The notes under the pieces: generated by a model
The model's database searches: none
What the model was told of the DNA's origin: nothing
The model's input: only the letters and a program-made list of their open reading frames with translations
Shown here: positions 37,274 through 60,100 of the stretch, one piece after another
Layout of the letters: each line of letters opens with the position of its first letter
How positions within the stretch are numbered: the first letter of the stretch is position 1
Assembly (NCBI GenBank): GCA_964597815.1
Contig: CAZQZN010000001.1
Span: forward strand, 151,965-215,964
DNA: 64,000 bases
Reading direction: 5' to 3'
Source of the DNA: an uncultured bacterium
Lineage (GTDB): Bacteria > Margulisbacteria > WOR-1 > JAKLHX01
Position numbers and translations under genes: made by a program

Positions 37274-38431
37274 ATGGAATATGGATTAACTGAAGAACAA
37301 ATAATGATAAGAGACCTTGCAAGAAAGATTTCTGTTGAAAAAGTCAAGCCAGTCAGAGCCGAACTTGATGAAACGGGCAAATTCCCATGGGATTTAATGA
37401 ATGAATTTGCAAAAGCTGACTTGTGCGGACTTTATATTCCTGAAAAATATGGCGGTTTTGGCGGAGGTTGTTTGGAATTTTGCCTCGCAACTGAGGAAAT
37501 AAGCAGAATTTGTGGTGGGGTTGGAGTAACTTTTGCTGCTTCTGCACTCGGGGCATTTCCTATTTTAATGTTTGGCACTGAAGAACAAAAAGAGAAATAT
37601 CTTCCTGACATAGCTTCTGGCAAAAAACTTGCCGCATTTGGCTTAACAGAAGCAAACGCTGGTTCGGATGCTGCTGGAATTCAGACAACTGCAAAAAAAG
37701 ATGGTGATTATTACATTTTAAATGGCACAAAACAATGGATAACAAATGGAGGAGAAGCAGAAACATACACTGTCATTGCGATGACTGACAAATCAAAAGG
37801 CAGCCGTGGTGCGACGGCATTTATACTTGAAAAAGGCATGAAAGGTTTTGACTTTGGGAAAAAGGAAAACAAAATGGGGATAAGGGCTTCGGCGACAAGG
37901 GAATTGATCTTTCAGGATTGCAAGGTTCACAAATCTCAAATACTTGGCAAAGAAGGAATGGGATTTATTGTTGCAATGAAAACCCTTGACAGAACAAGGC
38001 CCGGGATAGGCGCTCAGGCGGTTGGAATTGCGCAAGGAGCGTTAGATGAGGCGCTTGCATATTCAAAAACGAGAATTCAATTTGAGAAACCAATTTCTTC
38101 ATTTCAAGCTGTTCAACATATGCTTGCAGATATGGCAACACAGATTGAAGCAGCCCGAGCTCTTGTTTATGCAACGGCGAGGACTGTTGATGCCGGCGTT
38201 CAAGATATTTCAAAAGATAGTGCCATGTGCAAACTTTTTGCAAGTGATGTTGCAATGAAAGTGACAACAGATGCTGTTCAGATTTTTGGAGGATATGGCT
38301 ATATGAAGGAGTATCCAGTAGAAAAAATGATGCGTGATGCAAAAATCACTCAAATATATGAAGGCACCAATCAAATTCAACGAAATGTAATTGCTCTTTC
38401 ATTGATCAAAGAGTTGGCAGCGAAGAAATAA
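37274..38431 (+). CDS. Acyl-CoA dehydrogenase (short-chain/butyryl-CoA dehydrogenase-like) embedded in the fab operon
   Basis: ACAD family motifs GLTEANAGSDAAG and QIFGGYGYMKEYPVEKMMRDAKITQIYEGTNQIQR. Confidence 0.9.
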   Translation: MEYGLTEEQIMIRDLARKISVEKVKPVRAELDETGKFPWDLMNEFAKADLCGLYIPEKYGGFGGGCLEFCLATEEISRICGGVGVTFAASALGAFPILMFGTEEQKEKYLPDIASGKKLAAFGLTEANAGSDAAGIQTTAKKDGDYYILNGTKQWITNGGEAETYTVIAMTDKSKGSRGATAFILEKGMKGFDFGKKENKMGIRASATRELIFQDCKVHKSQILGKEGMGFIVAMKTLDRTRPGIGAQAVGIAQGALDEALAYSKTRIQFEKPISSFQAVQHMLADMATQIEAARALVYATARTVDAGVQDISKDSAMCKLFASDVAMKVTTDAVQIFGGYGYMKEYPVEKMMRDAKITQIYEGTNQIQRNVIALSLIKELAAKK

Positions 38432-38433
38432 CC

Positions 38434-39222
38434 ATGAACATAATAGTTTGTATAAAACAGGTGCCTGATACCACCGATGTAAAAATAGATCCAAAAACCA
38501 ACACCTTGATAAGAGAAGGGGTAAAAAGCATTATTAATCCATTTGATGAAAATGCGATAGAAGAAGCTTTGCGCATAAAAGAAAAATTTGGTGGAAAAGT
38601 AATTGTTATAACAATGGGGCCTTCACAAGCTGCAGATGCCTTAAAGACCGCAATTGCTATGGGCGCTGATGAAGCAGTGTTGATAAGCGACAGAGCTTTC
38701 GCTGGGGCGGATACTTGGGCAACATCATATACTTTATCTCAAGCAATAAAAAAAATCGGTACTTTTGATTTGGTTTTGTTTGGCAAACAGGCAATCGACG
38801 GTGATACAGCGCAAGTTGGGCCGGGTGTTGCAGAGTTTTTAGATATACCACAAATAACCTTTGCCGTAAATATAGAAATTGACAAAGAAAACAGAAAAAT
38901 CAAGGCAAAAAGACAGTTAGAAGATTCCTCAGAAACGATAGAAACAAATCTTCCTGCGGCAGTTACTGTAGTAAAACAAATAAATGAGCCGCGCATGCCG
39001 TCGTTAAAGGGACAAATCAGGGCAAAAAAAACCGAAATACCTGTTTGGACAGCTGATGATATACTTGCAGAACCGGACAATATTGGATTAAAGGGATCAC
39101 CAACTCAAGTTGTAAAAATTTTTACTCCTCCTCCGAGAGGCAATAGTCAAATTCTTGAAGGAACGCCTGAAGAGATTGCAGAAAAATTATTCCAAAAGTT
39201 AAAGGAGCAAAAGGTACTTTAA
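38434..39222 (+). CDS. etfB: Electron transfer flavoprotein beta subunit
   Basis: [13 protein letters not shown]... EtfB fold, about 260 aa. Confidence 0.9.
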
Positions 39223-40424
39223 TGGTTGAAGGAATTAGAGTAATACCTGAAAAATGCAAAGGATGCAAACTTTGTATTCCAGCGTGTCCATTTGGTGCCA
39301 TAGAAATTATTAATAAGGTCGCTGTAATAACAGATAAATGTGTTTTATGTGGCGCTTGTGTTGGAGCATGCAAATTCAATGCAATCATAATAGAAAAGAA
39401 AGAAGAATCACCAAAAAAAGATTTGTCAGGTTATAAAGGGATATGGGTTTTTGCTGAACAGCACAATGGCGAGCTTCAAACAGTTTCAATGGAACTTATT
39501 GCTGAAGGGAAAAAACTTGCAAAGGACATAAATTGTGATGTAACAGCAATACTTTTAGGTGCTGGTAATCTAAAAGATATGGCGCAGGAACTTATTAAAC
39601 ACGGTGCAGACAAAGTAATACTTGTTTCTGACAACAATTTGAAAAATTACCTTACGGAACCATTTGCTGATACAATCTCTTTCCTGATTGAAAAATATAA
39701 ACCGGAGATTTTTTTGCTTGGTGCTACTACAACCGGCAGAGATCTGGCTTCAAGAATAGCGGCAAGAATAAGGGTTGGACTTACTGCTGATTGCACTGGT
39801 TTGGATATTGATCCAGAAAAAAAGATATTATTGCAAACAAGGCCTGCTTTCGGCGGAAATATTATGGCAACTATTATTTCTCCAAATTTTAGACCTCAGA
39901 TGGCGACAGTCAGACCAAAAGTTTTCAAAAAACTTCCAAAAGATGATTCCAGAAAAGGACAAATAATAGAAGAACAAGCAAAAATAACCGAAAAATCTTT
40001 GAGGGCAAAAATTCTTGAAATAGTGAAATCAACTGAAAAAAAAGTTAATTTGGCTGAAGCCGAAATAATTGTTTCCGGAGGAAGAGGAATTGGCTGTGCA
40101 GAAAATTTCAAGATGATTCAAGAACTTGCCGAAGTTCTTGGTGGAGCAGTTGGGGCAAGCAGGGCAACTGTTGATGCTGGTTGGATATCGCAATACCATC
40201 AGGTAGGGCAGACGGGTAAAACAGTCAGCCCAAAAATATATTTTGCTTGTGGAATTTCTGGAGCAATTCAGCACTTAGCCGGCATGTCTTCCTCTGACAT
40301 AATCATAGCTATAAACAAAGATCCTTATGCTCCAATATTTAATGTTGCTACTTATGGGATAGTTGGAGATGTTCTTGAAATAGTTCCAGCTTTGACGAAA
40401 AAGTTTAAGGAGCTACTCTCTTGA
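39222..40424 (+). CDS. etfA: Electron transfer flavoprotein alpha subunit with N-terminal 2x[4Fe-4S] ferredoxin domain (CarE/FixB-like)
   Basis: [12 protein letters not shown] and [12 protein letters not shown] ferredoxin motifs precede EtfA domains, including the FAD-binding C-terminus. Confidence 0.9.
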
Positions 40425-43371: not shown

Positions 43372-44602
43372 AGTAGTTGTTACAGGAGTTGGCGCTGTAA
43401 CTCCTATTGGTATAGGAAAAGAAAACTTTTGGAATGCATTAAAATCAGGGAAAAATGGAGTTGGCAAAATTTCTTATTTTGATCCTTCGCCTTTTGATAC
43501 CCAAATTGCTGCTGAAGTAAAAGATTTTGATCCTTCAATATATTTGGACAAAAAAGAGGCAAGAAGACTCGTTAATTTTATTGTTTTTGCAATTGCCGCT
43601 TCGAAGATGGCGTTAGATGATTCTGGTTTAGAAATAAATGAAAGCAATGCGCCGAATGTCGGTGTTTTAATTGGTTCTGGGATAGGAGGCCTAAAATTTC
43701 TTGAAGAACAGTCAAAAATTTTGTGTGAAAAAGGCCCTTCAAGGTGTTCCCCATTTATGGTGCCTCTTATGATAAATGATATGGCAGCTGGAATGGTGTC
43801 AATAAAAACAGGGGCAAAGGGCCCAAATAGCTGCACGACAACCGCATGTGCTTCCGGCACTAATTCAATTGGAGATGCTTATGAAATAATAAAGAGGGGA
43901 GCAGCCGATGTTATGATAACCGGTGGCACAGAAGCTGCTATTACACCTCTTGGCATTGCTGGATTTTGTGCCGCACAAGCACTTTCAAGAAGAAATGATT
44001 CGCCTGAGAAAGCGTCGCGTCCATTTGATGCTCAAAGAGATGGCTTTGTGATGGGAGAGGGAGCAGGGATTGTAATTTTAGAAGAGTTAGAACATGCAAA
44101 AAAACGCGGGGCACAAATTTATGCTGAAGTTGTAGGATATGGGATGAGCGGTGATGCATTTCACATGACTGCGCCTCACGAAACTGGAGACGGGGCAATA
44201 AGGGCTATGAAAGCCGCGATTAAAAATGCTGGCATTTCTCCCGAAAAAATTGATTATATTAACGCTCATGGCACATCGACTCAATTAAACGACAAGCTGG
44301 AAACTCTTGCTATAAAAAAAGTATTTGGAGAATATTCAAAAAAAATTGCAATCAACTCAACAAAATCAATGATTGGTCATCTCTTGGGTGCTGCTGGTGG
44401 TGTTGAATTTGTCGCGATGGTTCTTTCAGTAAAAAATGATTTTATTCACCCTACAATAAATTATGAATATCCCGATCCAGAGTGCGATTTGGATTATGTG
44501 CCAAATGTCGGAAGAGATCAAAAAATCAATTATGCTATGAGCAATTCTTTTGGATTTGGCGGACATAATGCTGTCATAATTTGCAAAAAATTCAACGCCT
44601 AA
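43358..44602 (+). CDS. fabF: 3-oxoacyl-ACP synthase II
   Basis: Active-site Cys (TTACASG) and the characteristic INAHGTST and KSMIGHLLGAAG His motifs. Confidence 0.9.
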   Translation: MLERRVVVTGVGAVTPIGIGKENFWNALKSGKNGVGKISYFDPSPFDTQIAAEVKDFDPSIYLDKKEARRLVNFIVFAIAASKMALDDSGLEINESNAPNVGVLIGSGIGGLKFLEEQSKILCEKGPSRCSPFMVPLMINDMAAGMVSIKTGAKGPNSCTTTACASGTNSIGDAYEIIKRGAADVMITGGTEAAITPLGIAGFCAAQALSRRNDSPEKASRPFDAQRDGFVMGEGAGIVILEELEHAKKRGAQIYAEVVGYGMSGDAFHMTAPHETGDGAIRAMKAAIKNAGISPEKIDYINAHGTSTQLNDKLETLAIKKVFGEYSKKIAINSTKSMIGHLLGAAGGVEFVAMVLSVKNDFIHPTINYEYPDPECDLDYVPNVGRDQKINYAMSNSFGFGGHNAVIICKKFNA

Positions 44603-46638
44603 TTCTGAGCATTATTTTTAAAAACCAAACTAAAAGTAGTCCCTTTTTCAATTTCGCTTTCAACAGATATTGCTGCGTTGTGTTCATTGGCAAATCTAAA
44701 AGCTATAGCGAGTCCTAATCCTGTGCCATGTTCTTTTGTTGTAAAAAACGGATCAAATATTTTCCCCAGCATTTCTTTTGATATTCCTTTTCCGGTGTCA
44801 GAAATTTTAATTATAACTTCTTCATCTTTTTTTTCAGAGTGTAATGACAATATTCCTCCATTTGGCATTGCGTCAATAGCGTTTATAAACAAGTTTAATA
44901 GAACCTGCTTCATTCTGTTTTTGTCAGCCAATACAATATGATCCTCGCTTGTTTGATTTGTTATGATAATATTTTTTCCTTTTGCCAAATCGCGCACAAG
45001 AATTATTGTTTCTTCTGAAAGTTCTTTTGGGTTGATTTTCTCTATTACAGGAGTGGATTGTTTTGAATAGTCTTGAATACCTTGTAAAATGAGTTTTATT
45101 CTTCTTATTTCATTTTGGAGCAATACTGAATAATTGTCCAAAAATTCTTTATTATCAATTTGATGTGGGAGAAGTTGCGAAAAAATTGAGACAAAAGTCA
45201 AGGCATTTTTTACTTCATGCGCAATGCCAGCTATAACAACACCCAAACTTGCCAATTTTTCAAGTTTTAATGATTTTTCAAGAGATTTAATTTTTTGTTT
45301 ATATCTAATGGCGTTATCAATTCCGGCAGCGGTTTGATTTGCCAAGGTTTCAAAAAGCTGAATTTCTTCATCTGAAAATGGTGTCATATCTTTTTTGCAG
45401 TCAGAAGCGAGAAATCCCAAGAGTTTTTGTTCTTCACCACCAAAACAAGGAACAAGCAAAGTTATGTCCTTGTCAAAAATATCTATTTCCTCTTTGACGA
45501 TTGATGATTTTGTTTTTATTAATTCTTTAATAGTACTGTTTTCTTGAGAAATAAATGTGCCTTTAAGCTTTGTCAAAGAACCTTTTGCACTTGTGCAAAT
45601 ATATGCTGAGCATTCCTCATCTATGATAAAGGTTGCAACACCGTTCAATTTCAGAGTTATTGACGATGTATTGGTAATAAATTTTGAAAATTCTTCAATT
45701 GTTCTGAGTTTTTTGATTTTGTGCGAAAATTTTACTGCAATTTTTTCTGCCAAGAGCTTTGTTTTGAAAAATGTTTTATCAATAAATGAAATAGAAAAGT
45801 TCATAAGCGGGTAATATGCTATTGAAGCGATAATCAGAAATGGAAGAGTGCCCCAAAAAGAATTTAGATTTATAAACGGCAAAGATATATTGCTTGTAAT
45901 AAACATTATTGAGAAAAATATGACAGTAAACAAAACTGTTGAAACAGAATATAAAACACTTTTCCTGATGAGCATTTCAATGTTCATAAGCCTGTATCTT
46001 GTTATGGCATATGTTGTGAATGAGACAAATATTACTGTTGCAGAAGGACCAATAAAATTCAGTTTTGAAGTGCCTAATAGAGGAAGAATCAAATTGGTTA
46101 TTATGCCAATTAATGTTGAAATAACCATGCCAAAGAACATATATGATAATTTTGCTTTAATTAATGGTGTTGAAATTTTATATTTTTTGTATAGGATAAA
46201 GAATCCCACGATCACAAATGAAACGAAATATATTGCAAAAATGCTGTTGCCAATCCCATAGGCAACTTCTCTGTCAAAGCTGTTCACAGATTTTACAATG
46301 ATATCGGTTGGAATCATCGGTAAAAACAAAAGCCATGGTGAAAATATCGCTAATATATGCCATATTCCAAATGGTTTTTCTTTTTCAGAAAATAAAAATG
46401 AAAAATATAAAAAAGAGGATGGGATTAAGATTGGTCCGAGGAACATTAATCTTGCCCAAAACAAAGGATAGTTTGTCTGCCAAAACATAAATGTAGCAAA
46501 ATTCCAAATTGCGACTCCAATAATAATTGTAAATAAGGACAAATTTAAATGTCTTTTTGGCCCGTTTTTTAAAACAACAAAAGCCAAAAATAAATTTAGC
46601 AAAAATGCTGAAAATAGTATTAATGTTTTGAACATCAT
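44599..46638 (-). CDS. Sensor histidine kinase HK1, with N-terminal 7TM receptor-type membrane domain (HisKA_7TM-like), middle GAF/PAS-like region, DHp and HATPase
   Basis: Seven hydrophobic helices in the first ~300 aa. H-box IAHEVKNALTFV (His codon at 45218-45220). N/G1/G2 boxes LFINAIDAM, DTGKGI, GTGLGLAI. No receiver domain. Confidence 0.85.
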   Translation of the reverse strand: MMFKTLILFSAFLLNLFLAFVVLKNGPKRHLNLSLFTIIIGVAIWNFATFMFWQTNYPLFWARLMFLGPILIPSSFLYFSFLFSEKEKPFGIWHILAIFSPWLLFLPMIPTDIIVKSVNSFDREVAYGIGNSIFAIYFVSFVIVGFFILYKKYKISTPLIKAKLSYMFFGMVISTLIGIITNLILPLLGTSKLNFIGPSATVIFVSFTTYAITRYRLMNIEMLIRKSVLYSVSTVLFTVIFFSIMFITSNISLPFINLNSFWGTLPFLIIASIAYYPLMNFSISFIDKTFFKTKLLAEKIAVKFSHKIKKLRTIEEFSKFITNTSSITLKLNGVATFIIDEECSAYICTSAKGSLTKLKGTFISQENSTIKELIKTKSSIVKEEIDIFDKDITLLVPCFGGEEQKLLGFLASDCKKDMTPFSDEEIQLFETLANQTAAGIDNAIRYKQKIKSLEKSLKLEKLASLGVVIAGIAHEVKNALTFVSIFSQLLPHQIDNKEFLDNYSVLLQNEIRRIKLILQGIQDYSKQSTPVIEKINPKELSEETIILVRDLAKGKNIIITNQTSEDHIVLADKNRMKQVLLNLFINAIDAMPNGGILSLHSEKKDEEVIIKISDTGKGISKEMLGKIFDPFFTTKEHGTGLGLAIAFRFANEHNAAISVESEIEKGTTFSLVFKNNAQN

Positions 46639-47207
46639 ATTTTCAAAATTTTAACAAGTTTTTTTATTAAATTTGCTCTTCTCACATTTTTTTGATCTTT
46701 TTCGTAAGAAGAATTGTTATCGATATCCAGCGCCATTGCGCATGCTTTGCCGACATCATAAAAGTCAAACTTTAGCAAAGTATTAAATCCAAATTTTTTG
46801 TATAGTTCTATATTTTCTGATTTTCTCTCCAACGAAAATATCACGATTCTTTTTGCCCCATGTTCCTTAGCGTATTCATAAGCCAAAACCATAAGGCCAA
46901 GAGAAACGAACCCTTTTCTTTCTTCAGGCAATACCGCCAATTTTTGTATTTCTGCCATTGGTTTGTCTTTGAACTTTTTAAGGTCAACGAATTTTTCTAT
47001 CGGAAGATTTTCTGTGCCGGTTACAACTGTTATGACGCCAATAATTCTATTTTCTTTTTTTGCTATAAAGTGGGTTGAGGTTTTGTCAAAAGAGCTTGTT
47101 ATTGCTTCTTTTGGATAATGATCTTCATTAATGAAGACCTTCTCTCTAATGGCGATAATATCTGATAAATTTTTGTCGCCTTTTATTTGTTCAAATGTAT
47201 AATCCAT
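46635..47207 (-). CDS. GNAT-fold acyltransferase (possibly N-acyl amino acid synthase / LuxI-like subfamily; the subfamily assignment is tentative)
   Basis: IAIREKVFINEDHY...FD...H pattern and QKLAVLPEERKGFVSLGL resemble the R..VF..E/D..FD core of N-acyl synthase GNATs. 190 aa. It overlaps the HK1 start by 4 nt. Confidence 0.55.
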   Translation of the reverse strand: MDYTFEQIKGDKNLSDIIAIREKVFINEDHYPKEAITSSFDKTSTHFIAKKENRIIGVITVVTGTENLPIEKFVDLKKFKDKPMAEIQKLAVLPEERKGFVSLGLMVLAYEYAKEHGAKRIVIFSLERKSENIELYKKFGFNTLLKFDFYDVGKACAMALDIDNNSSYEKDQKNVRRANLIKKLVKILKI

Positions 47208-48010
47208 TATTTATCTACTATACCGCTTACTAATATACCTTGTCCAGCATATACTAATTTAGATTTTACTTCTTTAAAGCCGTTTTTTGATAAAAGATCC
47301 TTTATCTCTTCTCTAGAAAAGTATTTATATGCCCCTTTCTTTTGCTTATTGTTAATTATTTGGTTATAAAATAACATTTTGATTGTTGGCAATATAAGCC
47401 CAAATGCCTTAATAAGAGATTTTAGAAGTCCTAATTTTTTTCTGCCTATTCTTAATGTTTCAATGTATATTTTTTTTGGATCAAATCCTTTTTTTAAAGT
47501 TGCAATAATAAGTTTGCCTCCGGGTTTTAAAATTCGGTGGGATTCTTTAAGAGCGGATTCTCTTCCTTTGTCGCTTAAAATATAGAAAACATTTATGGAA
47601 ATAATTCTATCAAATGTATTTGATTGAAATTTGCTTTTTTTGCTAATATCTCCAAATTCTATTTTTATGTTTTCTGAAAAGATTTTTTTTTGTGCTATTT
47701 CTAATGCCTCCGGTATAATATCTATCCCAATATATTCAATTCTATTTTTTTGCAAAAGTGGTATAAGATTTCCAGTCCCGCAACCAGCGTCCAAAACCTG
47801 CTGATCAGCATCTAGTTGTGCCTCTTGAACAACTTTTTTCAGTAATGTTTGATAAGAATAAGATTCGTTGAGCACGTCATAGACTTTGAAATAATTCTTC
47901 CAAAAATTTTTTCCAAGGAATTTCTTGCTGAAATTTCTAAAAAAACTTTTTATAGAAAATCTTTTTCCAAACATATTTCTAATTTTCCAAAATAAAAGCA
48001 GTTTTATCAA
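47207..48010 (-). CDS. Class I SAM-dependent methyltransferase
   Basis: Motif I VLDAGCGTGNL, motif post-I IGIDI, motif II/III region. A likely alternative start is Met13 (nt 47974). It overlaps the GNAT start by 1 nt. Confidence 0.8.
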   Translation of the reverse strand: MIKLLLFWKIRNMFGKRFSIKSFFRNFSKKFLGKNFWKNYFKVYDVLNESYSYQTLLKKVVQEAQLDADQQVLDAGCGTGNLIPLLQKNRIEYIGIDIIPEALEIAQKKIFSENIKIEFGDISKKSKFQSNTFDRIISINVFYILSDKGRESALKESHRILKPGGKLIIATLKKGFDPKKIYIETLRIGRKKLGLLKSLIKAFGLILPTIKMLFYNQIINNKQKKGAYKYFSREEIKDLLSKNGFKEVKSKLVYAGQGILVSGIVDK

Positions 48011-48020
48011 TTATTAATAA

Positions 48021-48040
48021 ATATCCAATATTTTGGATAT
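48021..48040. promoter_or_regulatory. Perfect 8-bp inverted repeat ATATCCAA-TATT-TTGGATAT in the divergent control region between the two operons (candidate operator)
   Basis: Read directly from the sequence. It lies just upstream of the minus-strand MT gene and 160 nt upstream of the plus-strand reductase gene. Confidence 0.3.
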
Positions 48041-48146
48041 TTTGTCAATTGTAGAACTAAAAGGCTTATTCAGCTAGTTGTTTCTTGCGGGTTAAGGAAG
48101 TAAATAGAAAAGCTGATACTAATTACAATTGGATTGATCCATTTTT

Positions 48147-48175
48147 TTGCTTTATCAAACAAAAACGGCTATAAT
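48147..48175 (+). promoter_or_regulatory. Sigma70-like promoter (TTGCTT-17 nt-TATAAT) for the reductase-thioesterase-HK2 operon
   Basis: -35 at 48147-48152 and -10 at 48170-48175. The -10 ends 24 nt before the ATG at 48200. Confidence 0.45.
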
Positions 48176-48199
48176 AGAATAAACAAAAAGGAATAGTTT

Positions 48200-49393
48200 A
48201 TGAAAATAGCCATTACTGGTGTTACAGGATTACTTGGAAGGAATTTATTTTATGAAATTTTAAAGCAAAACTTAAACAATACGAATATAAAAATATTTGT
48301 TTTTGGCAGAAATCAAGGGAGCAAGTCTTTAAAACAAAGATTGATAGATGAGATAAAAAATGATGGCAGAATGTATCTTGGTATAACGACCGAACAAAAA
48401 TTAAAGAATTTTTTTGAACATTTTGAAGAAGTGATAAGGCCAGTTCATTTTGATCTGGCAAAAACTGATTTGGGAATTTCAAATCAAGATTTTGAGGAAT
48501 TAAAAAAACAAAAAATAGAGAAATTTTTCCATCTCGCGGCGCTGACAGATTTTCGTGTAACCCCCCTTATTAAAAAAAAATTAGATGAGGTAAATGTTGA
48601 AGGAACAAAGAAAGTAATAAATTTAATCGGAGAGATTGGAGTCAAACACTTAATTTTTAGTGGGTCTGCATATTCTGCTGGAATGACAAGCGGTATTGTT
48701 ATGCCGGATTGCGCAAATCCAATGGGAAAATTCAGAAATTATTATGAGCAAACAAAATTGATTGCTGAGGATGCGATCAAAGAATTTTCTAAGGAGAGTA
48801 AAATCAATTATCAGATTTTTCGCTTAACCGGAATTGGAGGCCGCTTAATTGAACAGCCTATTGGGCATGTTAGCAAATACGATATATTTTATGGATGGAT
48901 GATGTTTTTCTTTAAGCAGCGATTGTCTTCTCTAGGAGAGAAATTTTCTAATTACAATGAACCGCTAGAAATAAATGTTAGAATTGCGCTTAATAAAAAA
49001 GGTGGGATGAATGTTGCTCCTGCCGATTATGCGGCAAAAATAATGTACTTAACTTCAATTTTTGGCAATTCCAATGAGAGTTATCATATCGTAAATGATA
49101 TTGATATTCCAAATCAAAGATGTGTGGAGTTAATGTTGGAAGCATTAAATATAACTGGTTGGCAAATTGTCGATGATATTCCAAAAGAGAAAAATAAAAT
49201 TGAGCGGTTTTATTATAAGAGTGTTGGTGATATCTTTACTCCTTATGTAATGACTGATAAAATAGTTTACAATATAGACAATCTTGAGAGTATAAGAAAA
49301 AAATATAAAATCGAATGTCCGCCTATGACAGAGGACAATTTCAAAAAGTTGTTAAATTTTGCTAAAGAAAATAATTTTGGAGTAAAGATTTGA
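48200..49393 (+). CDS. Thioester-reductase-type SDR (fatty acyl-CoA/ACP reductase-like, NAD_binding_4/'male sterility' domain)
   Basis: ITGVTGLLGRNLFYEILKQ...IKIFVFGR...KQRLIDEI...VHFDLAKTDLGISNQDFEELKKQKIEKFFHLAALTDF reproduces the GxTGFLG...CLVR...GDL...LGL...HxAA pattern of terminal thioester reductases. Confidence 0.72.
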   Translation: MKIAITGVTGLLGRNLFYEILKQNLNNTNIKIFVFGRNQGSKSLKQRLIDEIKNDGRMYLGITTEQKLKNFFEHFEEVIRPVHFDLAKTDLGISNQDFEELKKQKIEKFFHLAALTDFRVTPLIKKKLDEVNVEGTKKVINLIGEIGVKHLIFSGSAYSAGMTSGIVMPDCANPMGKFRNYYEQTKLIAEDAIKEFSKESKINYQIFRLTGIGGRLIEQPIGHVSKYDIFYGWMMFFFKQRLSSLGEKFSNYNEPLEINVRIALNKKGGMNVAPADYAAKIMYLTSIFGNSNESYHIVNDIDIPNQRCVELMLEALNITGWQIVDDIPKEKNKIERFYYKSVGDIFTPYVMTDKIVYNIDNLESIRKKYKIECPPMTEDNFKKLLNFAKENNFGVKI

Positions 49394-49821
49394 AAGAAAA
49401 TATTTTTCAAAAATCTTTTACGGAGGAATTTATTGTTCATCTGTCTGACACTTCTTGTTATGGGATGGCTTTTTATCTTTCCTATCACAAATGGATTGCA
49501 TCCACAAAAGAAAAATTTTTTATAAAGAATGTTCCTCAATTTACGCAAATGTTTTCAAATGAGGGAATAAAGTTGATAGTCCTTGAAAATTACTTAAAGA
49601 TTTATAGGGAACTCAATTTGCATGAAGTAGTTAAAGTAAACCTTGTCTGTTCAGAAATAAAAAGGATTAAGGTTAAATTGAATTATCAATTATTAAACTC
49701 CGAAAATCTTTTGGTTGCTGAGGGTTATGATCGGATTGCTTTTGTGGACAGTTTTGGGAAGCCAATCATGCTGCCGGATAAAATTATGTTTGCGCTAAAA
49801 AAAATTCTTGTTGATTTATGA
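49390..49821 (+). CDS. Hotdog-fold (4HBT/YbgC-like) acyl thioesterase
   Basis: F.VHLSDTSCYGMAFYLSYHKWIASTKEKFF ... IAFVDSFGKPIMLPDKI matches the 4HBT layout (D-x-D/T...aromatic Y, C-terminal '...lP.e'). It overlaps the neighbours by 4 nt on both sides. Confidence 0.62.
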   Translation: MKENIFQKSFTEEFIVHLSDTSCYGMAFYLSYHKWIASTKEKFFIKNVPQFTQMFSNEGIKLIVLENYLKIYRELNLHEVVKVNLVCSEIKRIKVKLNYQLLNSENLLVAEGYDRIAFVDSFGKPIMLPDKIMFALKKILVDL

Positions 49822-51935
49822 ATCTGTTATCAATCTTTTGTTTTATAAACGGTTTTATAAATCTTTCCATAGGTTTCTTTTTGCTCAATCTGAATAAAAA
49901 TAAAATTATAAATATTTACTTCTTTTTGTTCACTTTGTCAATTGCTGTTTGGAATGAAGGCTATGCTTTTATGTACAGTCATCCGGATCTTAGTACCGCA
50001 CTATTGATGGCAAATATTGGAACAATAGGAATTATTTTTATTCCATTTTTTGCGAATCTTTTTGTACAAAAATTTCTAGGTCTTGAAGAGAGAAAATTAA
50101 ATGCGATCCTCACAATAATTGCATTGTTCCTTTTGTTTTTGTTGCTAAAATTTGGGTTTTATTCAGGCGTAACTAATCGTGGATTTTGGAATTATCCAGT
50201 TGCTGGAAATTTAGATTTTTTGAACATTTTGTTTTATGTGGTTATTTTTACAAAGATAAATTATCAGCTTTTTTCTGCTTATATTAGAGCTAGTGGCATT
50301 TATAAAAAAAGGATTTTTCACCTTTTGTTTGCTTTTGGGCTGGGTTTTTTTGGTTTTGTTGATTGGATACCAAATTTTATTTATTGGTTTCCTCCATTTG
50401 CCTTTTTATTGTCATTTACATGGGTTGTTGTTATTGCCTATGCCACATTTTCTGTCCGTTTGATGGATACCGAAATAGTTATTCGCAAAGGTGTCTTATA
50501 TTCGATAACTTTGTTTCTAATATCTTTTCTTTACCTTTTTTCAATATATTCTGCCAGATATTTATCACATATTTTTTCTGTTGAACAGCAGATCTGGTTT
50601 ATTTTACCAGCGGTTATAATTGCTTCTATATTGCTCAACCCAATCCGCGAGAGGATGATAAATTATGTGGATAAAACATTTTTTAAGACAAGATATGAAG
50701 CAGATAAAATCGCTCATAAGTTTTCTGAAAATATTAAACGTTTAATGAAAGTAAAAGAGCTTAGTGAATATGTAGATAGAGCTGCAATGAGAACATTTAA
50801 ATTAAAAGGAGTTTGCGTATTTGTTTTTAATGAGAAGAGTAATGAATATTTTTGCCAAGATGCTCGGGGGGATATGAAAGAATTTGTGAATAAAACAATA
50901 AATCCTGATTCCTTATTAGCAAAAGAATTAAAGCGAACAAAAAAAGTATTAACAACTGAAAATCTAAAAATACTGATGAGAGAAAAAACAACAGATGATG
51001 AACATTTCAAAATGGCCAATGATCTGATTTGTGAATTAGATAATCTTAAAGCTGTAATAGCAGTTCCAAGCATTTCATATAAAAAAGATTATTCTTTAAT
51101 TGCTTTTCTATTGTCATCTGGCAAAAAATCAGAAGACCTTTTTTCAGAAACTGATATTTCTCTGCTCGAAAATATATCTAATTTGGTATCAATAGCACTG
51201 GAAAATGCAGAGTTATTTGAAGAGCAAATGGATATTTTGACTAAATCGATGAAATTGGAAAAACTTGCTGAACTTGGCAGGGCAACTTCAGAACTTGCTA
51301 AACAATCTGAGAAAGCTTTTGCATATATTGAGTGGTTTGCAAATGAGTTTCCAAACAAAAAAGAAGATAGGGAATTTTTATTGAAAGAAGGGAAAAAACT
51401 TGAAATAGAAACTGAGAAGTTTAAATTGTTCATGCTTGGCATTTTGAATTTTTCACGCCCATCGCCATTAAAAATTGTTTCTCTTAATGTAAAAAAAGTT
51501 TTAGATGAAGTAATTTTCATGTTGTTTGGTGGGTATGACGAAAAAGATAATCAAAAGATATCTTTGGCAATAAACTGTCCTGATTATTTAAACGTTTTGG
51601 GAGATCAAAACGCACTTAAACAAGTTTTTTTCAATATTATAAAAAATGCTATAGAATCTTTCAAAAAGGATTTTGGCAAAATTGAAATAAATGTTTTCGA
51701 ACAAGGCAATAATATAATAATTCAGGTAAAAGATGATGGCGAAGGCATTGATGATAAAATTAAAGATAGAATTTTTGAGCCTTTTTTCAGCACAAAAGAA
51801 GATGGAATAGGTTTGGGGCTTTCAATAGTACTGCGTTTGGTAAAGGATATGCATGGTTTAATAGATTTTGAAACGAAGAAAAATTTCGGTTCAATATTCA
51901 CAATAACGCTACCAAAAACAAATTCCTCAAACTGA
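49818..51935 (+). CDS. HK1-paralogous 7TM-receptor histidine-kinase-like protein HK2, lacking the phospho-acceptor His (Lys at the H-box position) but with intact HATPase N/G1/G2 boxes
   Basis: Same architecture as HK1. DHp helix reads KLEKLAELGRATSELAKQSEKAF, with the Lys codon aaa at 51300-51302 aligned to the His of HK1's IAHEVKN. N box FFNIIKNAIES, G1 DDGEGI, G2 GIGLGLSIV. Confidence 0.85.
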   Translation: MNLLSIFCFINGFINLSIGFFLLNLNKNKIINIYFFLFTLSIAVWNEGYAFMYSHPDLSTALLMANIGTIGIIFIPFFANLFVQKFLGLEERKLNAILTIIALFLLFLLLKFGFYSGVTNRGFWNYPVAGNLDFLNILFYVVIFTKINYQLFSAYIRASGIYKKRIFHLLFAFGLGFFGFVDWIPNFIYWFPPFAFLLSFTWVVVIAYATFSVRLMDTEIVIRKGVLYSITLFLISFLYLFSIYSARYLSHIFSVEQQIWFILPAVIIASILLNPIRERMINYVDKTFFKTRYEADKIAHKFSENIKRLMKVKELSEYVDRAAMRTFKLKGVCVFVFNEKSNEYFCQDARGDMKEFVNKTINPDSLLAKELKRTKKVLTTENLKILMREKTTDDEHFKMANDLICELDNLKAVIAVPSISYKKDYSLIAFLLSSGKKSEDLFSETDISLLENISNLVSIALENAELFEEQMDILTKSMKLEKLAELGRATSELAKQSEKAFAYIEWFANEFPNKKEDREFLLKEGKKLEIETEKFKLFMLGILNFSRPSPLKIVSLNVKKVLDEVIFMLFGGYDEKDNQKISLAINCPDYLNVLGDQNALKQVFFNIIKNAIESFKKDFGKIEINVFEQGNNIIIQVKDDGEGIDDKIKDRIFEPFFSTKEDGIGLGLSIVLRLVKDMHGLIDFETKKNFGSIFTITLPKTNSSN

Positions 51936-56253: not shown

Positions 56254-56979
56254 ATGACTGAAATAAGAGAAATTGGTTCTTCTAATATTTCTTCTGCAAG
56301 AAATCAAAATGTTTCTGAGAGGGCTGCTGTTACAAAATCTCCAAGCTCAGCAGAAAGAAAAAACGTTGTTTCTCAAAATTCGGCAAATCAGACTGACTTG
56401 GCCAATTCTGACTTATTCAAGGCACTTGAAAATGGTGATATAAACGCTATTAAAACCGCTTTGTCTAAGGGCGCAAAAGTCAACGCAACAAATGAAGAGG
56501 GCTTAACCCCATTGATGATTGCTGCTAAAGGTGGGAATTTGGAAGCGGTAAAAGCTTTGATTTCAGCAAAAGCTGATGTTAATGCAGAGGATGTTTTTGG
56601 TTTGACACCTCTTATGTATGCAACAATTTTTGATAAGACAGAAGTTGCTAAATTTTTGATAAATTCTAAGGCACATATTAATGATGAAGTTGATGAGCTT
56701 GGCAAAAATGCTTTTATGTATGCTGTAACAAATAACAATGTTGAACTTGTTAAAGCTATGATAAACGCAAAAGCTGATGTCAATACTACAGATAACCAAG
56801 GTCTTACACCGCTAATGATAGCAGCATCAAATGGAAATGCAAAAATAGTAAATCTTTTGCTTGATGCAAAAGCAAAGGTAGATGTTAAAGACAATTTAGG
56901 TACTACGGCTTTGATGTATGCTAAAACAAATGGCAATGCTGAAATAGTAAAAGCGCTCATTGCTCATGGAGCAAAATAA
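56254..56979 (+). CDS. Ankyrin-repeat protein (6 repeats) with ~55-aa Ser/Asn-rich disordered N-terminal leader and no signal peptide
   Basis: Repeated G.TPLM.A...GN...VK.LI...A.VN modules; GGAGG RBS upstream of the ATG. Confidence 0.85.
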   Translation: MTEIREIGSSNISSARNQNVSERAAVTKSPSSAERKNVVSQNSANQTDLANSDLFKALENGDINAIKTALSKGAKVNATNEEGLTPLMIAAKGGNLEAVKALISAKADVNAEDVFGLTPLMYATIFDKTEVAKFLINSKAHINDEVDELGKNAFMYAVTNNNVELVKAMINAKADVNTTDNQGLTPLMIAASNGNAKIVNLLLDAKAKVDVKDNLGTTALMYAKTNGNAEIVKALIAHGAK

Positions 56980-57167: not shown

Positions 57168-60100
57168 CTATTTTCTATATGGTCCAACCCCGTATTTTTC
57201 TTGAGCTTTTCTTATTCTTTCTTTTCTTGCAGCTTTTTCCGCTTCTTTATTTTTGTCAACTAATTCAACCGGTGGTTTATTTTCATTAATTTTTCTTTGA
57301 GTTTTACCTTTATTCTGTTCTTTAGGGAACATAGGTGTCATTAATTTAGATGGATCTTCCTCTTGGCCAGTATTCATATCGTGAACATCTTTTTCTCTAT
57401 TTTTGTCTTTTCTAATTTCTCCTTTAATCTTATTAATAGACGAATTTGCAATATAACCTGGTTTTGTTGAGGTTTTGTCTTTTGTCATTACAGCGAGAAT
57501 CTTTTCCTTAATAGAAATATCATAAGGCAGATCCAAGTTTTCAGCTTTTAGTGTTCTGGTTTCTTGCATTATGATACCATTTTGATTTATGTAGCCCTTA
57601 TTGATCAAGAGATTCCATAGAGATTCTAATTCTGAGTCATCCATTATGCCTCTAAAATCTTTAATTGATACAGAACGGCTATTTTTTAAAACTGCCTGTT
57701 GCTTTACTTTCCCGTTTATTAATGCGGCTACAAATTCTTCAATTCCAAATGAGGCCTTAATAGGTTTTGCATCTTTGCCCCAATTACCTTCAACATAAAT
57801 TTTGTCCTTTTTCCTGCCAAACAATTTGTGTGAATTTGGCATTCTATTCATTGCAAAATCAGTCAGTTTTTCTCTTATTTGAGCTAACGTTTTTGAGATT
57901 TGCGCAAAATCTTGAGATTCTTCATTTCCAATCATTTCAGATATCATTCCGGCGTTTGCAGGAGACGTTCCAGCGATAGAAATCAATCCTACCGCAGAAG
58001 AATAAACTCCATTAATATCTCCGGCTTTTATTGCGTTGTTCAATTCTGAATATAAAGTTTTGGAAAGATTAATCAAATCTTTTTCTTTAGTTTCTTTTAT
58101 CCTTTGTAATACTTTGTCTTCAAGAGCCAATCTTTCAAAAGAAGATTGTTTTTCTAAAGCCTCTTTTGCAAAAACCTCTGCTTCAATTATTACAGATTTT
58201 TCTTTCATTGTTTTTTTATCTTTCGGGAGTGCAACTTTTATTCCGGAGTTTAATTCTGCAAGATATTCAGCTGGGAATTGATTTATAAAGTGTTCGATTT
58301 TTTCTTTTAAAGAATCCGGAAGCGATGACAAAACCTGTCCTATTTGCGCTCTTGTTTGAGGAGTATTGCCATTTTTATCTATTAAACGATAAATCAGATA
58401 CATTGTGTCTTCAAAAAGCTTGTCATAGAAAGCACTTCTTAATTCTTCAACATTTTCAAATTGTTTGGCTGAAGAATTTTTCAGTTGGTCTATATCAGTT
58501 TCGCTGATTATTTTTCTTTCAATTGATTCATTTAAAACTTCTGTGATTGCATATTTTTCTGTTAAGGAATATTCTGTGCTGTCTAAGTTTACAATGCCTA
58601 TTCTTTCATTTTGTTTAACTAAACCTTTTTCATCAATATATCCAGAATTTATTAGATCTTGCCACACTTTACTTGTTTTTTTGCCTACTTTATTAAAATC
58701 TCTTGGTGAAACTTTTCCAGCAGGACTTTTAGGATTTATTATGCCAATACCTTTGCCTATTTCTTTTAGCGGAAAGAAGATTGTGTTTACAATTTTGCTT
58801 TGAGTATCGGCAATTTTTCTGAAAATCCCATCTTTTTCCTCAATAGATTCTTTGGCGTCCTTATATATGTCTAAAAGTGCTTTTTTCTCTTTATCTTGAA
58901 TTTCCAAATTTGGCAGGATTTTTTCAAAATCTGGATTAAAAATCAGATCTTTGTCCTCTGGGTTTATAAACAGCATTTGTAATAAATCATCTGTAATTGA
59001 AACCTTCTTAAGCAGTTTTTCTCTATTTATGATAACAGCGCTGTTGTTTGCGTATGATTTGATCAATAAATCGTTTTGTGGCATATCGTCGGAGTCATTT
59101 TCAAGCCACTCAAAAGCGCCATTTTCTTTTAAGGTTGATAATGTTGCCAACAGCTCTTTTGTTTCTCTTTCGATTATGCCTTCATTTTTGGCCTTTCTAT
59201 TTCCACCAATCATTGTCAAAACATTTATTATTGGCAATCTTGAAGAATCTTGCCACCAGTTTGCGGTGTTTTGACCCAGTGCAACAAACTGGTCATCTAT
59301 TTTTCTTCTAATTAGAGCGGAAAGTCGAGGATCATCTGATCCAAAAAGTTCAATGGTCAACTCTTTAATTATTTCTCTCTTCTTGGTTATATCTTTTTCT
59401 GAATTGTAGGCCATGACAAGAGAGCCAATTGCTGCACTAGTTGGATTGAACGAGGTAACTGGAAGACCATTTATAGAAAGACCAGATTTGCCAACTCCAA
59501 CAGTAGTTTCACCCAAAATTTGTGTATCACTTGATTTAATGCCTTTTGTTGAAATTGATATATTTGGATTTCCATTAACATCCATTCCAACCCCAACATT
59601 TTTTACTTTCACGCTGCCCTGCATGCCATTTGGCCCATAACTTGATTGCAAAGAGGATTCTGGAGATAAAGCTACTGTTTGGTTCACAGACCAATAAGTA
59701 TCCCAATCGCCATTTGTGTTTGCAATGCCGGCGTCAACACCAACTGAGACGGGCCCTTGGCTTGCTCTAATTCCCAGACCCAAACCATATCTGTATGTGT
59801 CTTTTGTATTAGCCCATTCATTTTGTTTAAGATTAAGATCTTTGATATTTTCATATTCGCCAAACACAGATAAAGTTGTGTCAAAAGTGATGTTTTGTTT
59901 GTCAAGATGAAACTTTTTATTAACTCCAATCTCGCCTCTCAATCTGTAAAACTCTGCTAATTTAAGAATAGCTTCATTTTCGGAATGGCCTTGATAAAGA
60001 GTTTTTGTCCCATTTTTGTTTTTCATCATTATACTGGTGCCAACAGGTGTCTTAGTAATTATTAGTTGATATGCTAATTTTGGATCTTCCCAAGTGTTTG

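Follow-up and report, generated by a model that had tools for sequence, protein, structure and literature searches.

HK2, a His-less histidine kinase homologue maintained beside a His-containing paralogue in a genomic island of Margulisbacteria

The window analysed here is a stretch of 64,000 nucleotides from an uncultured bacterium of the Margulisbacteria (contig CAZQZN010000001.1, positions 151,965 to 215,964). On its plus strand it encodes HK2, a homologue of membrane histidine kinases (HKs) whose open reading frame (ORF) spans 49818..51935 and gives a protein of 705 amino acids (aa). A first-pass annotation, made from the letters alone, had read HK2 as a pseudo-histidine kinase in which Lys takes the place of the phospho-acceptor His. 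At the level of sequence our results support that reading: no orthologue has the His, and purifying selection acts on the gene. The window also encodes a paralogue of HK2 on the minus strand, HK1 (44599..46638; 679 aa), with the same architecture and a complete H-box. We hold, with a little more belief than doubt, that HK2 is a selectively maintained receptor pseudokinase acting through this adjacent kinase.

Phospho-acceptor position and domain layout of HK2

The replacement of the conserved His by Lys495 (in-frame codon aaa, 51300..51302, plus strand) was confirmed by BLASTP, by an alignment of orthologues and by a profile alignment to PDB sequences. By BLASTP, HK1 and HK2 match end to end with 28% identity (E 2e-79), and K495 lies opposite H474 of HK1, whose cat codon occupies 45217-45219 on the minus strand, one base off from the 45218-45220 first assigned to it. 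In the PDB sequence search, the acceptor column of the HK2-orthologue profile coincided with the acceptor His of ZraS (9jfj, AGVAHEIRNPL) and with that of ThkA (3a0r, ARVAHEIRNPI). The H-box of HK2 reads A-K-Q-S-E-K-A-F where A-H-E-x-K-N-A-L is expected. All His residues of HK2 are at positions 55, 168, 251, 300, 396 and 679, the nearest ones to K495 being H396, 99 residues upstream, and H679, 184 residues downstream; the first-pass annotation had claimed a His-free zone of about 40 residues on either side, and the real one is wider. No His is present in the DHp hairpin (residues 444-546; 51147..51455, plus strand), which was delimited from the alignments and the secondary structure of an AF2 model, with helices at 444-514 and 518-546.

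Two sources of error had been named at first pass. A misalignment masking a nearby His is ruled out by the His-free DHp and by the column fixed through the ZraS/ThkA profile alignment, and no His elsewhere in HK2 maps to the acceptor position. A sequencing error at 51300-51302 is also ruled out, because two independent assemblies (ENA ERZ27247228 and JGI 3300009503), 99.7-99.8% identical to the window, share GCTAAACAA with the same AAA codon.

Regarding the catalytic modules, Pfam finds HisKA_7TM, a weak GAF match and HATPase_c in both paralogues, and its HisKA model matches HK1 only. Set beside a competent HisKA kinase, HK2 lacks the acceptor (K495, no His in the DHp, no Pfam HisKA match) and has the N, G1, F and G2 boxes. 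Its CA domain (residues 554-700; 51477..51917, plus strand) matches HATPase_c with an E value of 4.7e-23, with the N box at 51633-51647, G1 (DxGxG) at 51732-51746, the F box at 51774-51785 and G2 (GxGLG) at 51804-51818. These motif columns are conserved across the family, which bears out the intact N, G1 and G2 boxes noted earlier: N606/N610, D639xG641xG643, F653/F656 and G663xG665LG667 are invariant or nearly invariant in the family alignment, and every member of the HK2 clade keeps the CA motifs N-D-G-G-G-G.

From the N- to the C-terminus, HK2 comprises a HisKA_7TM sensor, two further transmembrane (TM) helices, a GAF-like domain, the His-less DHp and the CA domain. The AF2 model, a monomer with a mean pLDDT of 78 and a pTM of 0.39, folds residues 3-211 into seven TM helices, followed by a junction modelled with low confidence (RLMD motif, 214-217), a second set of two long helices at 218-288 (TM8-TM9) and a GAF-like alpha/beta domain at 312-436, where the Pfam matches to GAF_2/GAF_3 are weak. 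The variable 7TM sensor module, of the kind we call type A, covers residues 1-213 (49818..50456, plus strand) and ends at the RLMD junction, as judged from Pfam and from breakpoints in relatives; its match to HisKA_7TM (PF16927) spans residues 12-218 and scores 38.1 bits against a cutoff of 28.6, which makes it a member of the family. TM8-TM9, a juxtamembrane helix with H300 and the GAF-like domain form a conserved segment at 50469..51125 (plus strand; AF2, weak Pfam). The corresponding variable 7TM module of HK1 lies at roughly 46000-46638 on the minus strand. In Foldseek searches, the C-terminal part of HK2 matched the cytoplasmic domains of HK853, ZraS and YycG with TM-scores of 0.6-0.74, and the DHp-CA structure of the pseudokinase DivL (4q20) was among the matches with 0.71. 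Against PDB sequences, the HK2-orthologue profile matched ZraS with an E value of 1.6e-39, and the RetS structures 6dk7/6dk8 were also found.

Conservation of the His loss

His occupies the acceptor column in 159 of the 180 family DHp segments that we aligned (profile search and hmm alignment), a set made up of the best 150 matches from 1.84 billion cluster representatives together with the hits of the first homologue search. Given this conservation, and since most of the exceptions cluster phylogenetically around HK2, the loss is not a matter of chance. Six orthologues (P0003-P0008; 36-48% identity) have G or S at the acceptor column, and none carries a Pfam HisKA annotation; they read GVA-G/S-EAQ-S/N-AL, where HK1 and the next-nearest relatives read GVAHEAKNAL. 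Four loci from metagenome-assembled genomes of Candidatus Margulisiibacteriota in GTDB (L011-L014) likewise have G or S. Among remoter His-less relatives the residue is K (P0030, P0041/42), R (P0032, P0062), I (P0044) or N (P0055), with the CA motifs intact. Overall, K or R fills the column in seven of 14 His-less representatives, and G, S, I or N in the other half. An orthologue alignment had been proposed at first pass as a check on the Lys, and its outcome is split: the loss of the His is old and conserved in all orthologues, the Lys itself is not. With G or S in orthologues and any of K, R, I and N in more distant relatives, the replacing residue is unconstrained and Lys has no special role; phosphorylation of this Lys is unlikely, and we rejected it as a candidate.

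When the 14 His-less representatives were compared with 12 His-containing relatives, only the acceptor column of the DHp proved to be conserved in the latter and lost in the former. At +4 of the E/DxxT/N phosphatase motif, 10 of the 12 His-containing relatives have N; the His-less group has K, S, N, L or A there, with N in only three of the 14. In HK2 itself the stretch from the acceptor to +4 is K-Q-S-E-K, which does not fit the motif. No column is His throughout the His-less group, H300 and the His at position 662 being present in seven of the 14 each. Both were tried as an alternative conserved His and rejected: H300 is invariant in the closest orthologues, not in the remoter His-less members, and the same holds for position 662. 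His300 of HK2 (50715-50717, KIAHKFS) lies in the juxtamembrane helix before the GAF-like domain and is invariant in the seven closest HK2 sequences; HK1-type proteins carry K, R or V at this position, and remoter His-less members R, K, N or A.

For HK2, the ratio of non-synonymous to synonymous substitution rates among orthologues (dN/dS, Nei-Gojobori) was 0.035-0.12 over the DHp and 0.11-0.39 over the CA domain, compared with 0.06-0.25 for the HK1 DHp and 0.01-0.04 for clpC. As these ratios are well below 1 and indicate strong purifying selection on the DHp, HK2 is a maintained gene, and no part of it is more constrained than the His-less DHp. In a bootstrapped neighbour-joining (NJ) tree the partners fall into two paralogous lineages: A, which contains HK1 and is His-containing throughout, and B, which contains HK2. 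P0041/42 group with the His-containing P0010/34 at 100% support, and the tree suggests that the His was lost at least twice within lineage B.

According to these results, the conclusion that HK2 is unable to autophosphorylate on the canonical site is supported, as far as sequence can tell. HK2 agrees at the sequence level with the definition of a pseudo-HK (sensu Collins & Childers) as a protein with the HK fold and a missing catalytic function that is maintained nonetheless. Pseudo-HKs are a recognised class, and in a published census 0.9% of HisKA domains have no His. The first-pass remark that such proteins are rare can now be given this figure, with the qualification that the class was already known.

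Pairing with HK1 and exchange of sensor-enzyme cassettes

In all ten loci with both flanks readable, the His-less protein adjoins a His-containing paralogue. The two form a divergent HK1/HK2 pair in the window, L001, L002, L004, L006, L007 and L009, and stand in tandem in L019 (P0030), L020 (P0041) and L021 (P0055), these tandem pairs being without the enzyme genes. A common layout was seen in every related locus recovered (L001, L002/L003/L014, L004/L005, L006/L011, L007 and L009), with a His-containing HK1 beside fabF, a His-less HK2 beside clpC and variable enzyme genes between them. Because the adjacency is conserved in ten out of ten loci, a partnership of HK2 with HK1 gains indirect support. 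In relatives, helix 1 of the DHp is 50-56% identical between HK1 and HK2, versus about 30% for helix 2 of the same pairs; in the window the value for helix 1 is only 30%, against 28% overall. The similarity of helix 1 in relatives is compatible with mixed dimers and is no proof of them.

Comparing loci with one another reveals exchanged segments. L006 and L007 belong to near-identical genomes, with 100% identical ClpC proteins and flanking DNA identical at 92-98.5%. From about residue 210 to the C-terminus both kinases are 95-100% identical between the two, save the DHp loop and helix 2 of HK1, and over residues 1 to about 210, that is, the HisKA_7TM module, both are only 20-30% identical. The enzyme genes between the kinases share no DNA homology. 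By blastn, homology stops at about codon 208 of HK1 and returns at about codon 220 of HK2, this non-homology being broken only by some 215 conserved bp of the divergent intergenic region. Two independent cassettes therefore surround a conserved core. L004 and L009 differ by the same type of exchange, and sliding identity and blastn place the HK2 breakpoints in relatives, which are sharp and fall at the RLMD junction, at codon 210-220 or so. Besides, L004 contains a truncated 337-aa 5' fragment of HK2 (L004:7096-8109; a type-D sensor and the conserved part to about codon 336) upstream of an inserted acyltransferase gene, a DUF362 gene and a type-C HK2, which looks like the footprint of a cassette insertion by within-gene recombination.

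The sensor type co-varies with the adjacent enzymes in seven of seven loci. Type A sensors of HK2 are found with a reductase and a thioesterase (window, L001, L007), type B with the reductase alone (L002, L009), type C with a PlsC-type acyltransferase and DUF362 (L004), and type D with an AlaDh-like dehydrogenase (L006/L011/L013). The sensor types of HK1 likewise track sets of FeeM-GNAT and methyltransferase genes. Between the window and L007, which share type A, conservation within HK2 is higher in the sensor (50-72%) than in the cytoplasmic portion (20-60%).

In the pherotype loci agr (agrBDC), comQXP and phc, signal-synthesis genes and the membrane half of the sensor make up a variable block, the kinase half is conserved, and the breakpoints between conspecific strains are sharp. 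The HK locus shows the same division into variable synthesis genes with a variable sensor half and a conserved kinase half. It differs from them in having two receptors, a kinase and a pseudokinase, with two independently reassorting cassettes; its enzymes are lipid-tailoring and not peptide-processing, and it contains no cognate regulator. Since the cassette architecture matches that of these loci, it argues for the HK2 sensor being a working, specificity-determining receptor, probably for a lipid-derived compound that the neighbouring enzymes make. The label of decoy, offered at first pass, undersells HK2: with a polymorphic sensor module that varies in step with the enzyme genes beside it, the protein looks like a working receptor.

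If HK2 acts through HK1, as we favour, its 7TM module would bind a ligand of its own, probably a lipid-derived product of the upstream reductase and thioesterase, and HK2 would relay the signal to HK1 via protein-protein contact, most likely as a DHp heterodimer or hetero-oligomer. The ATP-loaded CA domain of HK2 might then phosphorylate His474 of HK1 in trans, or HK2 might gate HK1 allosterically; within the same model, nucleotide-dependent docking of CA on DHp could have an allosteric role instead. We infer a heterodimer working in one of these ways, and roughly half of the weight that we give to the whole reading goes to trans-phosphorylation by HK2. In a trans geometry the CA domain of HK2 would face the sole available His, that of HK1, and a mixed HK1:HK2 dimer so arranged would explain why the catalytic residues of the DHp are free and the ATP site of the CA domain is fixed. 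The output would pass from HK1~P to an unlinked response regulator, for which an NtrC type is suggested because the DHp-CA is ZraS/AtoS/PrsK-like. If true, the heterodimer would offer a natural system for trans-phosphorylation, for two-input integration by histidine kinases and for the persistence of ATP-binding pseudokinases, and would point to lipid-based, strain-specific signalling in an uncultivated phylum.

A more far-reaching version, which we regard as doubtful, makes the whole island between fabF and clpC a two-receptor locus for communication or self-recognition. Each cassette would consist of lipid-tailoring enzymes and the matching 7TM module, on HK1 or on HK2; the CA domain of HK2 would trans-phosphorylate HK1, and the output would need or integrate two strain-specific lipid signals. 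Such a locus, if true, would be a bacterial counterpart of the kinase-pseudokinase receptors of the HER2/HER3 type, with agr-like pherotypes.

Several points weigh against HK2 acting through HK1. The adjacency could be no more than the outcome of tandem duplication. The main His-less clade has a support of only about 50% in the NJ tree. HK1 carries an intact CA domain of its own and hence has no need of that of HK2. The sensor cassettes of HK1 and HK2 reassort independently, so the two need not sense related signals. A cis geometry cannot be told from a trans one in the AF2 model, because it is a monomer with a low pTM. Finally, the positions that usually specify the response regulator differ, HK2 having a clade-conserved Y-I-E-W-F and HK1 Y/F-V-S-A/I-F, and the HK2-specific YIEWF surface motif could point to a separate partner.

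YIEWF lies just past the acceptor, where regulators dock, within a DHp that is extremely conserved. This favours a different role for HK2, which we judge unlikely, as a dedicated response-regulator phosphatase or a DivL-like regulator-binding sensor that forms no mixed dimer with HK1; its DHp would dock a phosphorylated regulator and dephosphorylate it, or read its state for another kinase. The acceptor His is not needed for HisKA proteins to act as phosphatases (literature summarised in bioRxiv 10.1101/2025.06.23.661182), E is retained at +1 in most close orthologues and N at +4 in some (GEAQN, SEAQN), and DivL is a precedent for binding a regulator. However, 11 of the 14 His-less representatives have K, S, L or A at +4 and HK2 of the window has lost both motif positions, so that the relaxed Asn weakens a conserved phosphatase role. 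A partner is not at hand either: no receiver (Response_reg) or HPt domain was found in the 64-kb window (CheY phmmer --max on six-frame ORFs; Pfam on about 50 ORFs), and no receiver domain within 10 kb in the related loci. A phosphatase role alone also leaves the strict retention of the ATP motifs unexplained. Should HK2 be no more than a regulator-binding protein, it would still represent a new and clean pseudo-HK family whose evolutionary signature is clear.

The ATP-binding motifs, all intact and constrained, would be accounted for if HK2 were an active kinase with a non-canonical acceptor, either Ser/Thr on itself or a partner or else Lys495 or His300, after the models of PDK/BCKDK, SpoIIAB/RsbW, plant ETR2 and phytochrome. 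We consider this very unlikely. The invariance of H300 in the closest HK2 sequences, where HK1-type proteins have K, R or V, and the recurrence of K or R at the acceptor column in half of the His-less representatives speak for it. Nevertheless, G, S, I or N in the other half means that no equivalent acceptor is conserved, H300 is missing from the remoter members (R, K, N, A) and sits in a juxtamembrane helix far in sequence from the DHp, and the DHp has no Ser/Thr/Tyr column specific to the His-less group.

The perfect tracking of sensor type and immediately upstream enzyme genes in seven loci, together with the translational coupling of HK2 to the thioesterase gene, would also suit an HK2 that acts locally, independently of HK1 and with no phosphorelay output, as an ATP-binding scaffold in the membrane for the two enzymes of its own operon, the reductase and the thioesterase, or as their regulator. 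The chances of this are slim, as it leaves unexplained why the DHp, a module for dimerisation and partner docking, is the most constrained part, and why a His-containing neighbour is there even where the enzyme genes are absent (L019-L021). An artefact or decaying pseudogene (sequencing or assembly error, or recent loss of function) has nothing in its favour beyond the missing His and next to no chance of being true, being refuted by the same codon in two independent assemblies, the intact 705-aa ORF, His-less orthologues at 36-48% identity and dN/dS well below 1.

Some further observations concern the related loci. Between L006 and L007, the DHp loop and helix 2 of HK1 (about residues 470-550), the usual regulator-specificity region, are only 70-82% identical, the rest of the cytoplasmic part of HK1 being 95-100% and the HK2 DHp 100% identical. 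Besides HK1 and HK2, L002 has another paralogue, here 'HK3' (L002:7080-8735; 551 aa), which recurs in L003 and L014 and combines HisKA_7TM, a GAF-like region and a DHp with His (SLQHEINNPL), with no CA domain at all. One lineage encodes it within the HK2 operon, and it complements HK2 in what has degenerated, HK2 lacking the His and keeping the CA domain; the DHp of HK3 is of a different subtype and its pairing with HK2 uncertain. The P0010 locus (ENA ERZ1426827) has an Aminotran_1_2 gene (CqsA-like fold family) and a small ORF followed by a 697-aa 7TM kinase, and continues with an acyltransferase, DUF362 and the His-containing P0010 beside fabF, another enzyme-plus-receptor arrangement in the family. 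Lastly, the divergent intergenic region of relatives has a non-coding core, about 230 nt long, whose conservation reaches 85-98% between loci with unrelated cassettes (L006:8637-8851, L007:5367-5581, L004:5645-5893, L009:4257-4504, L002:6799-7011). It carries the hairpin GGAGCTTTTTAGCTCT, has no Rfam match and is too similar among loci for covariation to be judged; this core of the relatives is absent from the window.

Known systems and genomic setting

For a kinase homologue that regulates another kinase, the closest precedent, by analogy, is the pair RetS-GacS of Pseudomonas aeruginosa. RetS is a 7TM-type kinase homologue that regulates GacS via DHp-DHp contact and not through a phosphorelay of its own; in RetS the His is kept and the ATP site degenerate, and the protein carries receiver domains along with a 7TMR-DISM sensor. 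HK2 is its mirror image, with the His lost, the ATP site kept, a HisKA_7TM (PF16927) sensor and no receiver, and so does not have the features of the RetS type.

DivL of Caulobacter crescentus, the archetypal bacterial pseudo-histidine kinase, is essential and controls the true kinase CckA via protein-protein contacts. In common with HK2, it combines the HK fold with another residue in place of the acceptor His, and the protein is retained. Unlike HK2, it has a multi-PAS architecture, carries a conserved Tyr in the acceptor position and senses DivK~P through the DHp. HK2, for its part, is a 9-TM receptor with a GAF-like domain, no conserved replacement residue, conserved ATP motifs and a partner paralogue next door; its acceptor column is K, G, S, R, I or N, never Y, and its N-terminus is HisKA_7TM plus GAF-like, which sets it apart from the DivL type. 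In PsmA of Streptomyces venezuelae (PMC12963549), the acceptor position is variable (E/D/Q/V/Y), the flanking H-box is conserved and the D/ExxT/N motif is missing, the same evolutionary signature as in the HK2 clade. However, PsmA is a cytoplasmic hybrid HK-like protein that binds DivIVA at hyphal tips; it is no membrane receptor and has no paralogous kinase as a partner.

The closest relatives of HK2 in sequence and structure are PrsK, AtoS/ZraS and ThkA, its DHp-CA being of the NtrB/ZraS type, and all of them, unlike HK2, carry the acceptor His. PrsK, which partners the sigma-54 activator PrsR, shares with HK2 the layout of multiple TM helices, GAF, DHp and CA. The NCBIfam model for PrsK (TIGR02916) matches residues 203-699 of HK2 with an E value of 1.6e-30 and 106.3 bits against a cutoff of 300, and HK1 with 93.3 bits; scores this far under the curated cutoffs place HK2 outside the PrsK/AtoS/ZraS families.

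Judged by its sequence, HK2 would then be a pseudo-HK of neither the DivL nor the RetS type. The novelty lies in what comes together here: a membrane receptor pseudokinase whose ATP site is intact, an obligate partnership with a kinase paralogue, loss of the His more than once in the family and a polymorphic sensor-enzyme cassette. Pseudo-HKs are thinly sampled, and the worked examples DivL and PsmA are cytoplasmic or polar organisers; in the HK2 family the determinants of both kinase acceptor and phosphatase are gone and the ATP-binding motifs strictly kept.

The genes described here form an island between the end of the fatty-acid synthesis operon and clpC-radA, in a window with a GC content of 34%. 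HK1 closes a minus-strand operon that starts with a class I methyltransferase gene dependent on S-adenosylmethionine (UbiE/CMAS-like; 47207..48010), followed by the co-oriented gene upstream of HK1, a GNAT/FeeM-like N-acyl amino acid synthase (46635..47207; Pfam FeeM E 1.8e-10, above cutoff). On the plus strand, HK2 closes an operon that begins with an NAD_binding_4/thioester-reductase-type short-chain dehydrogenase/reductase (48200..49393; Pfam E 1.1e-29; NCBIfam thioester reductase domain). This is followed by a 4HBT_2/YbgC-like acyl thioesterase (49390..49821), to which HK2 is translationally coupled, its start ATG overlapping the thioesterase stop as ATGA. The divergent intergenic region between the two operons (48011..48199) contains a perfect 9-bp palindrome with a 4-nt spacer, AATATCCAA-TATT-TTGGATATT (48020-48041), as a candidate operator. 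Rfam had no match in the window or in three related loci, and a promoter and terminator scan of the island gave counts equal to the shuffled expectation in this AT-rich DNA.

The GNAT protein (46635-47207) also weakly matches the PEP-CTERM/exosortase-associated acyltransferase family (TIGR03694), far below its cutoff; a distant tie of this protein and of HK1 and HK2, by way of their weak PrsK matches, to a PEP-CTERM regulatory module is possible. Further along the window, a giant minus-strand ORF (57168-63923; 2251 aa) has no Pfam match at E<=1e-5, and syntenic giant ORFs of 2463-2680 aa without Pfam hits are present in the related loci; an ankyrin-repeat gene (56254-56979) adjoins it in the window. 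The fab operon runs yceD, plsX, fabH, acyl-CoA dehydrogenase, electron-transfer flavoprotein (ETF), fabD, fabG, acpP, fabK and fabF. The acyl-CoA dehydrogenase and a ferredoxin-fused ETF alpha/beta pair thus lie between fabH and fabD (37274-40424), an arrangement also found in the related loci.

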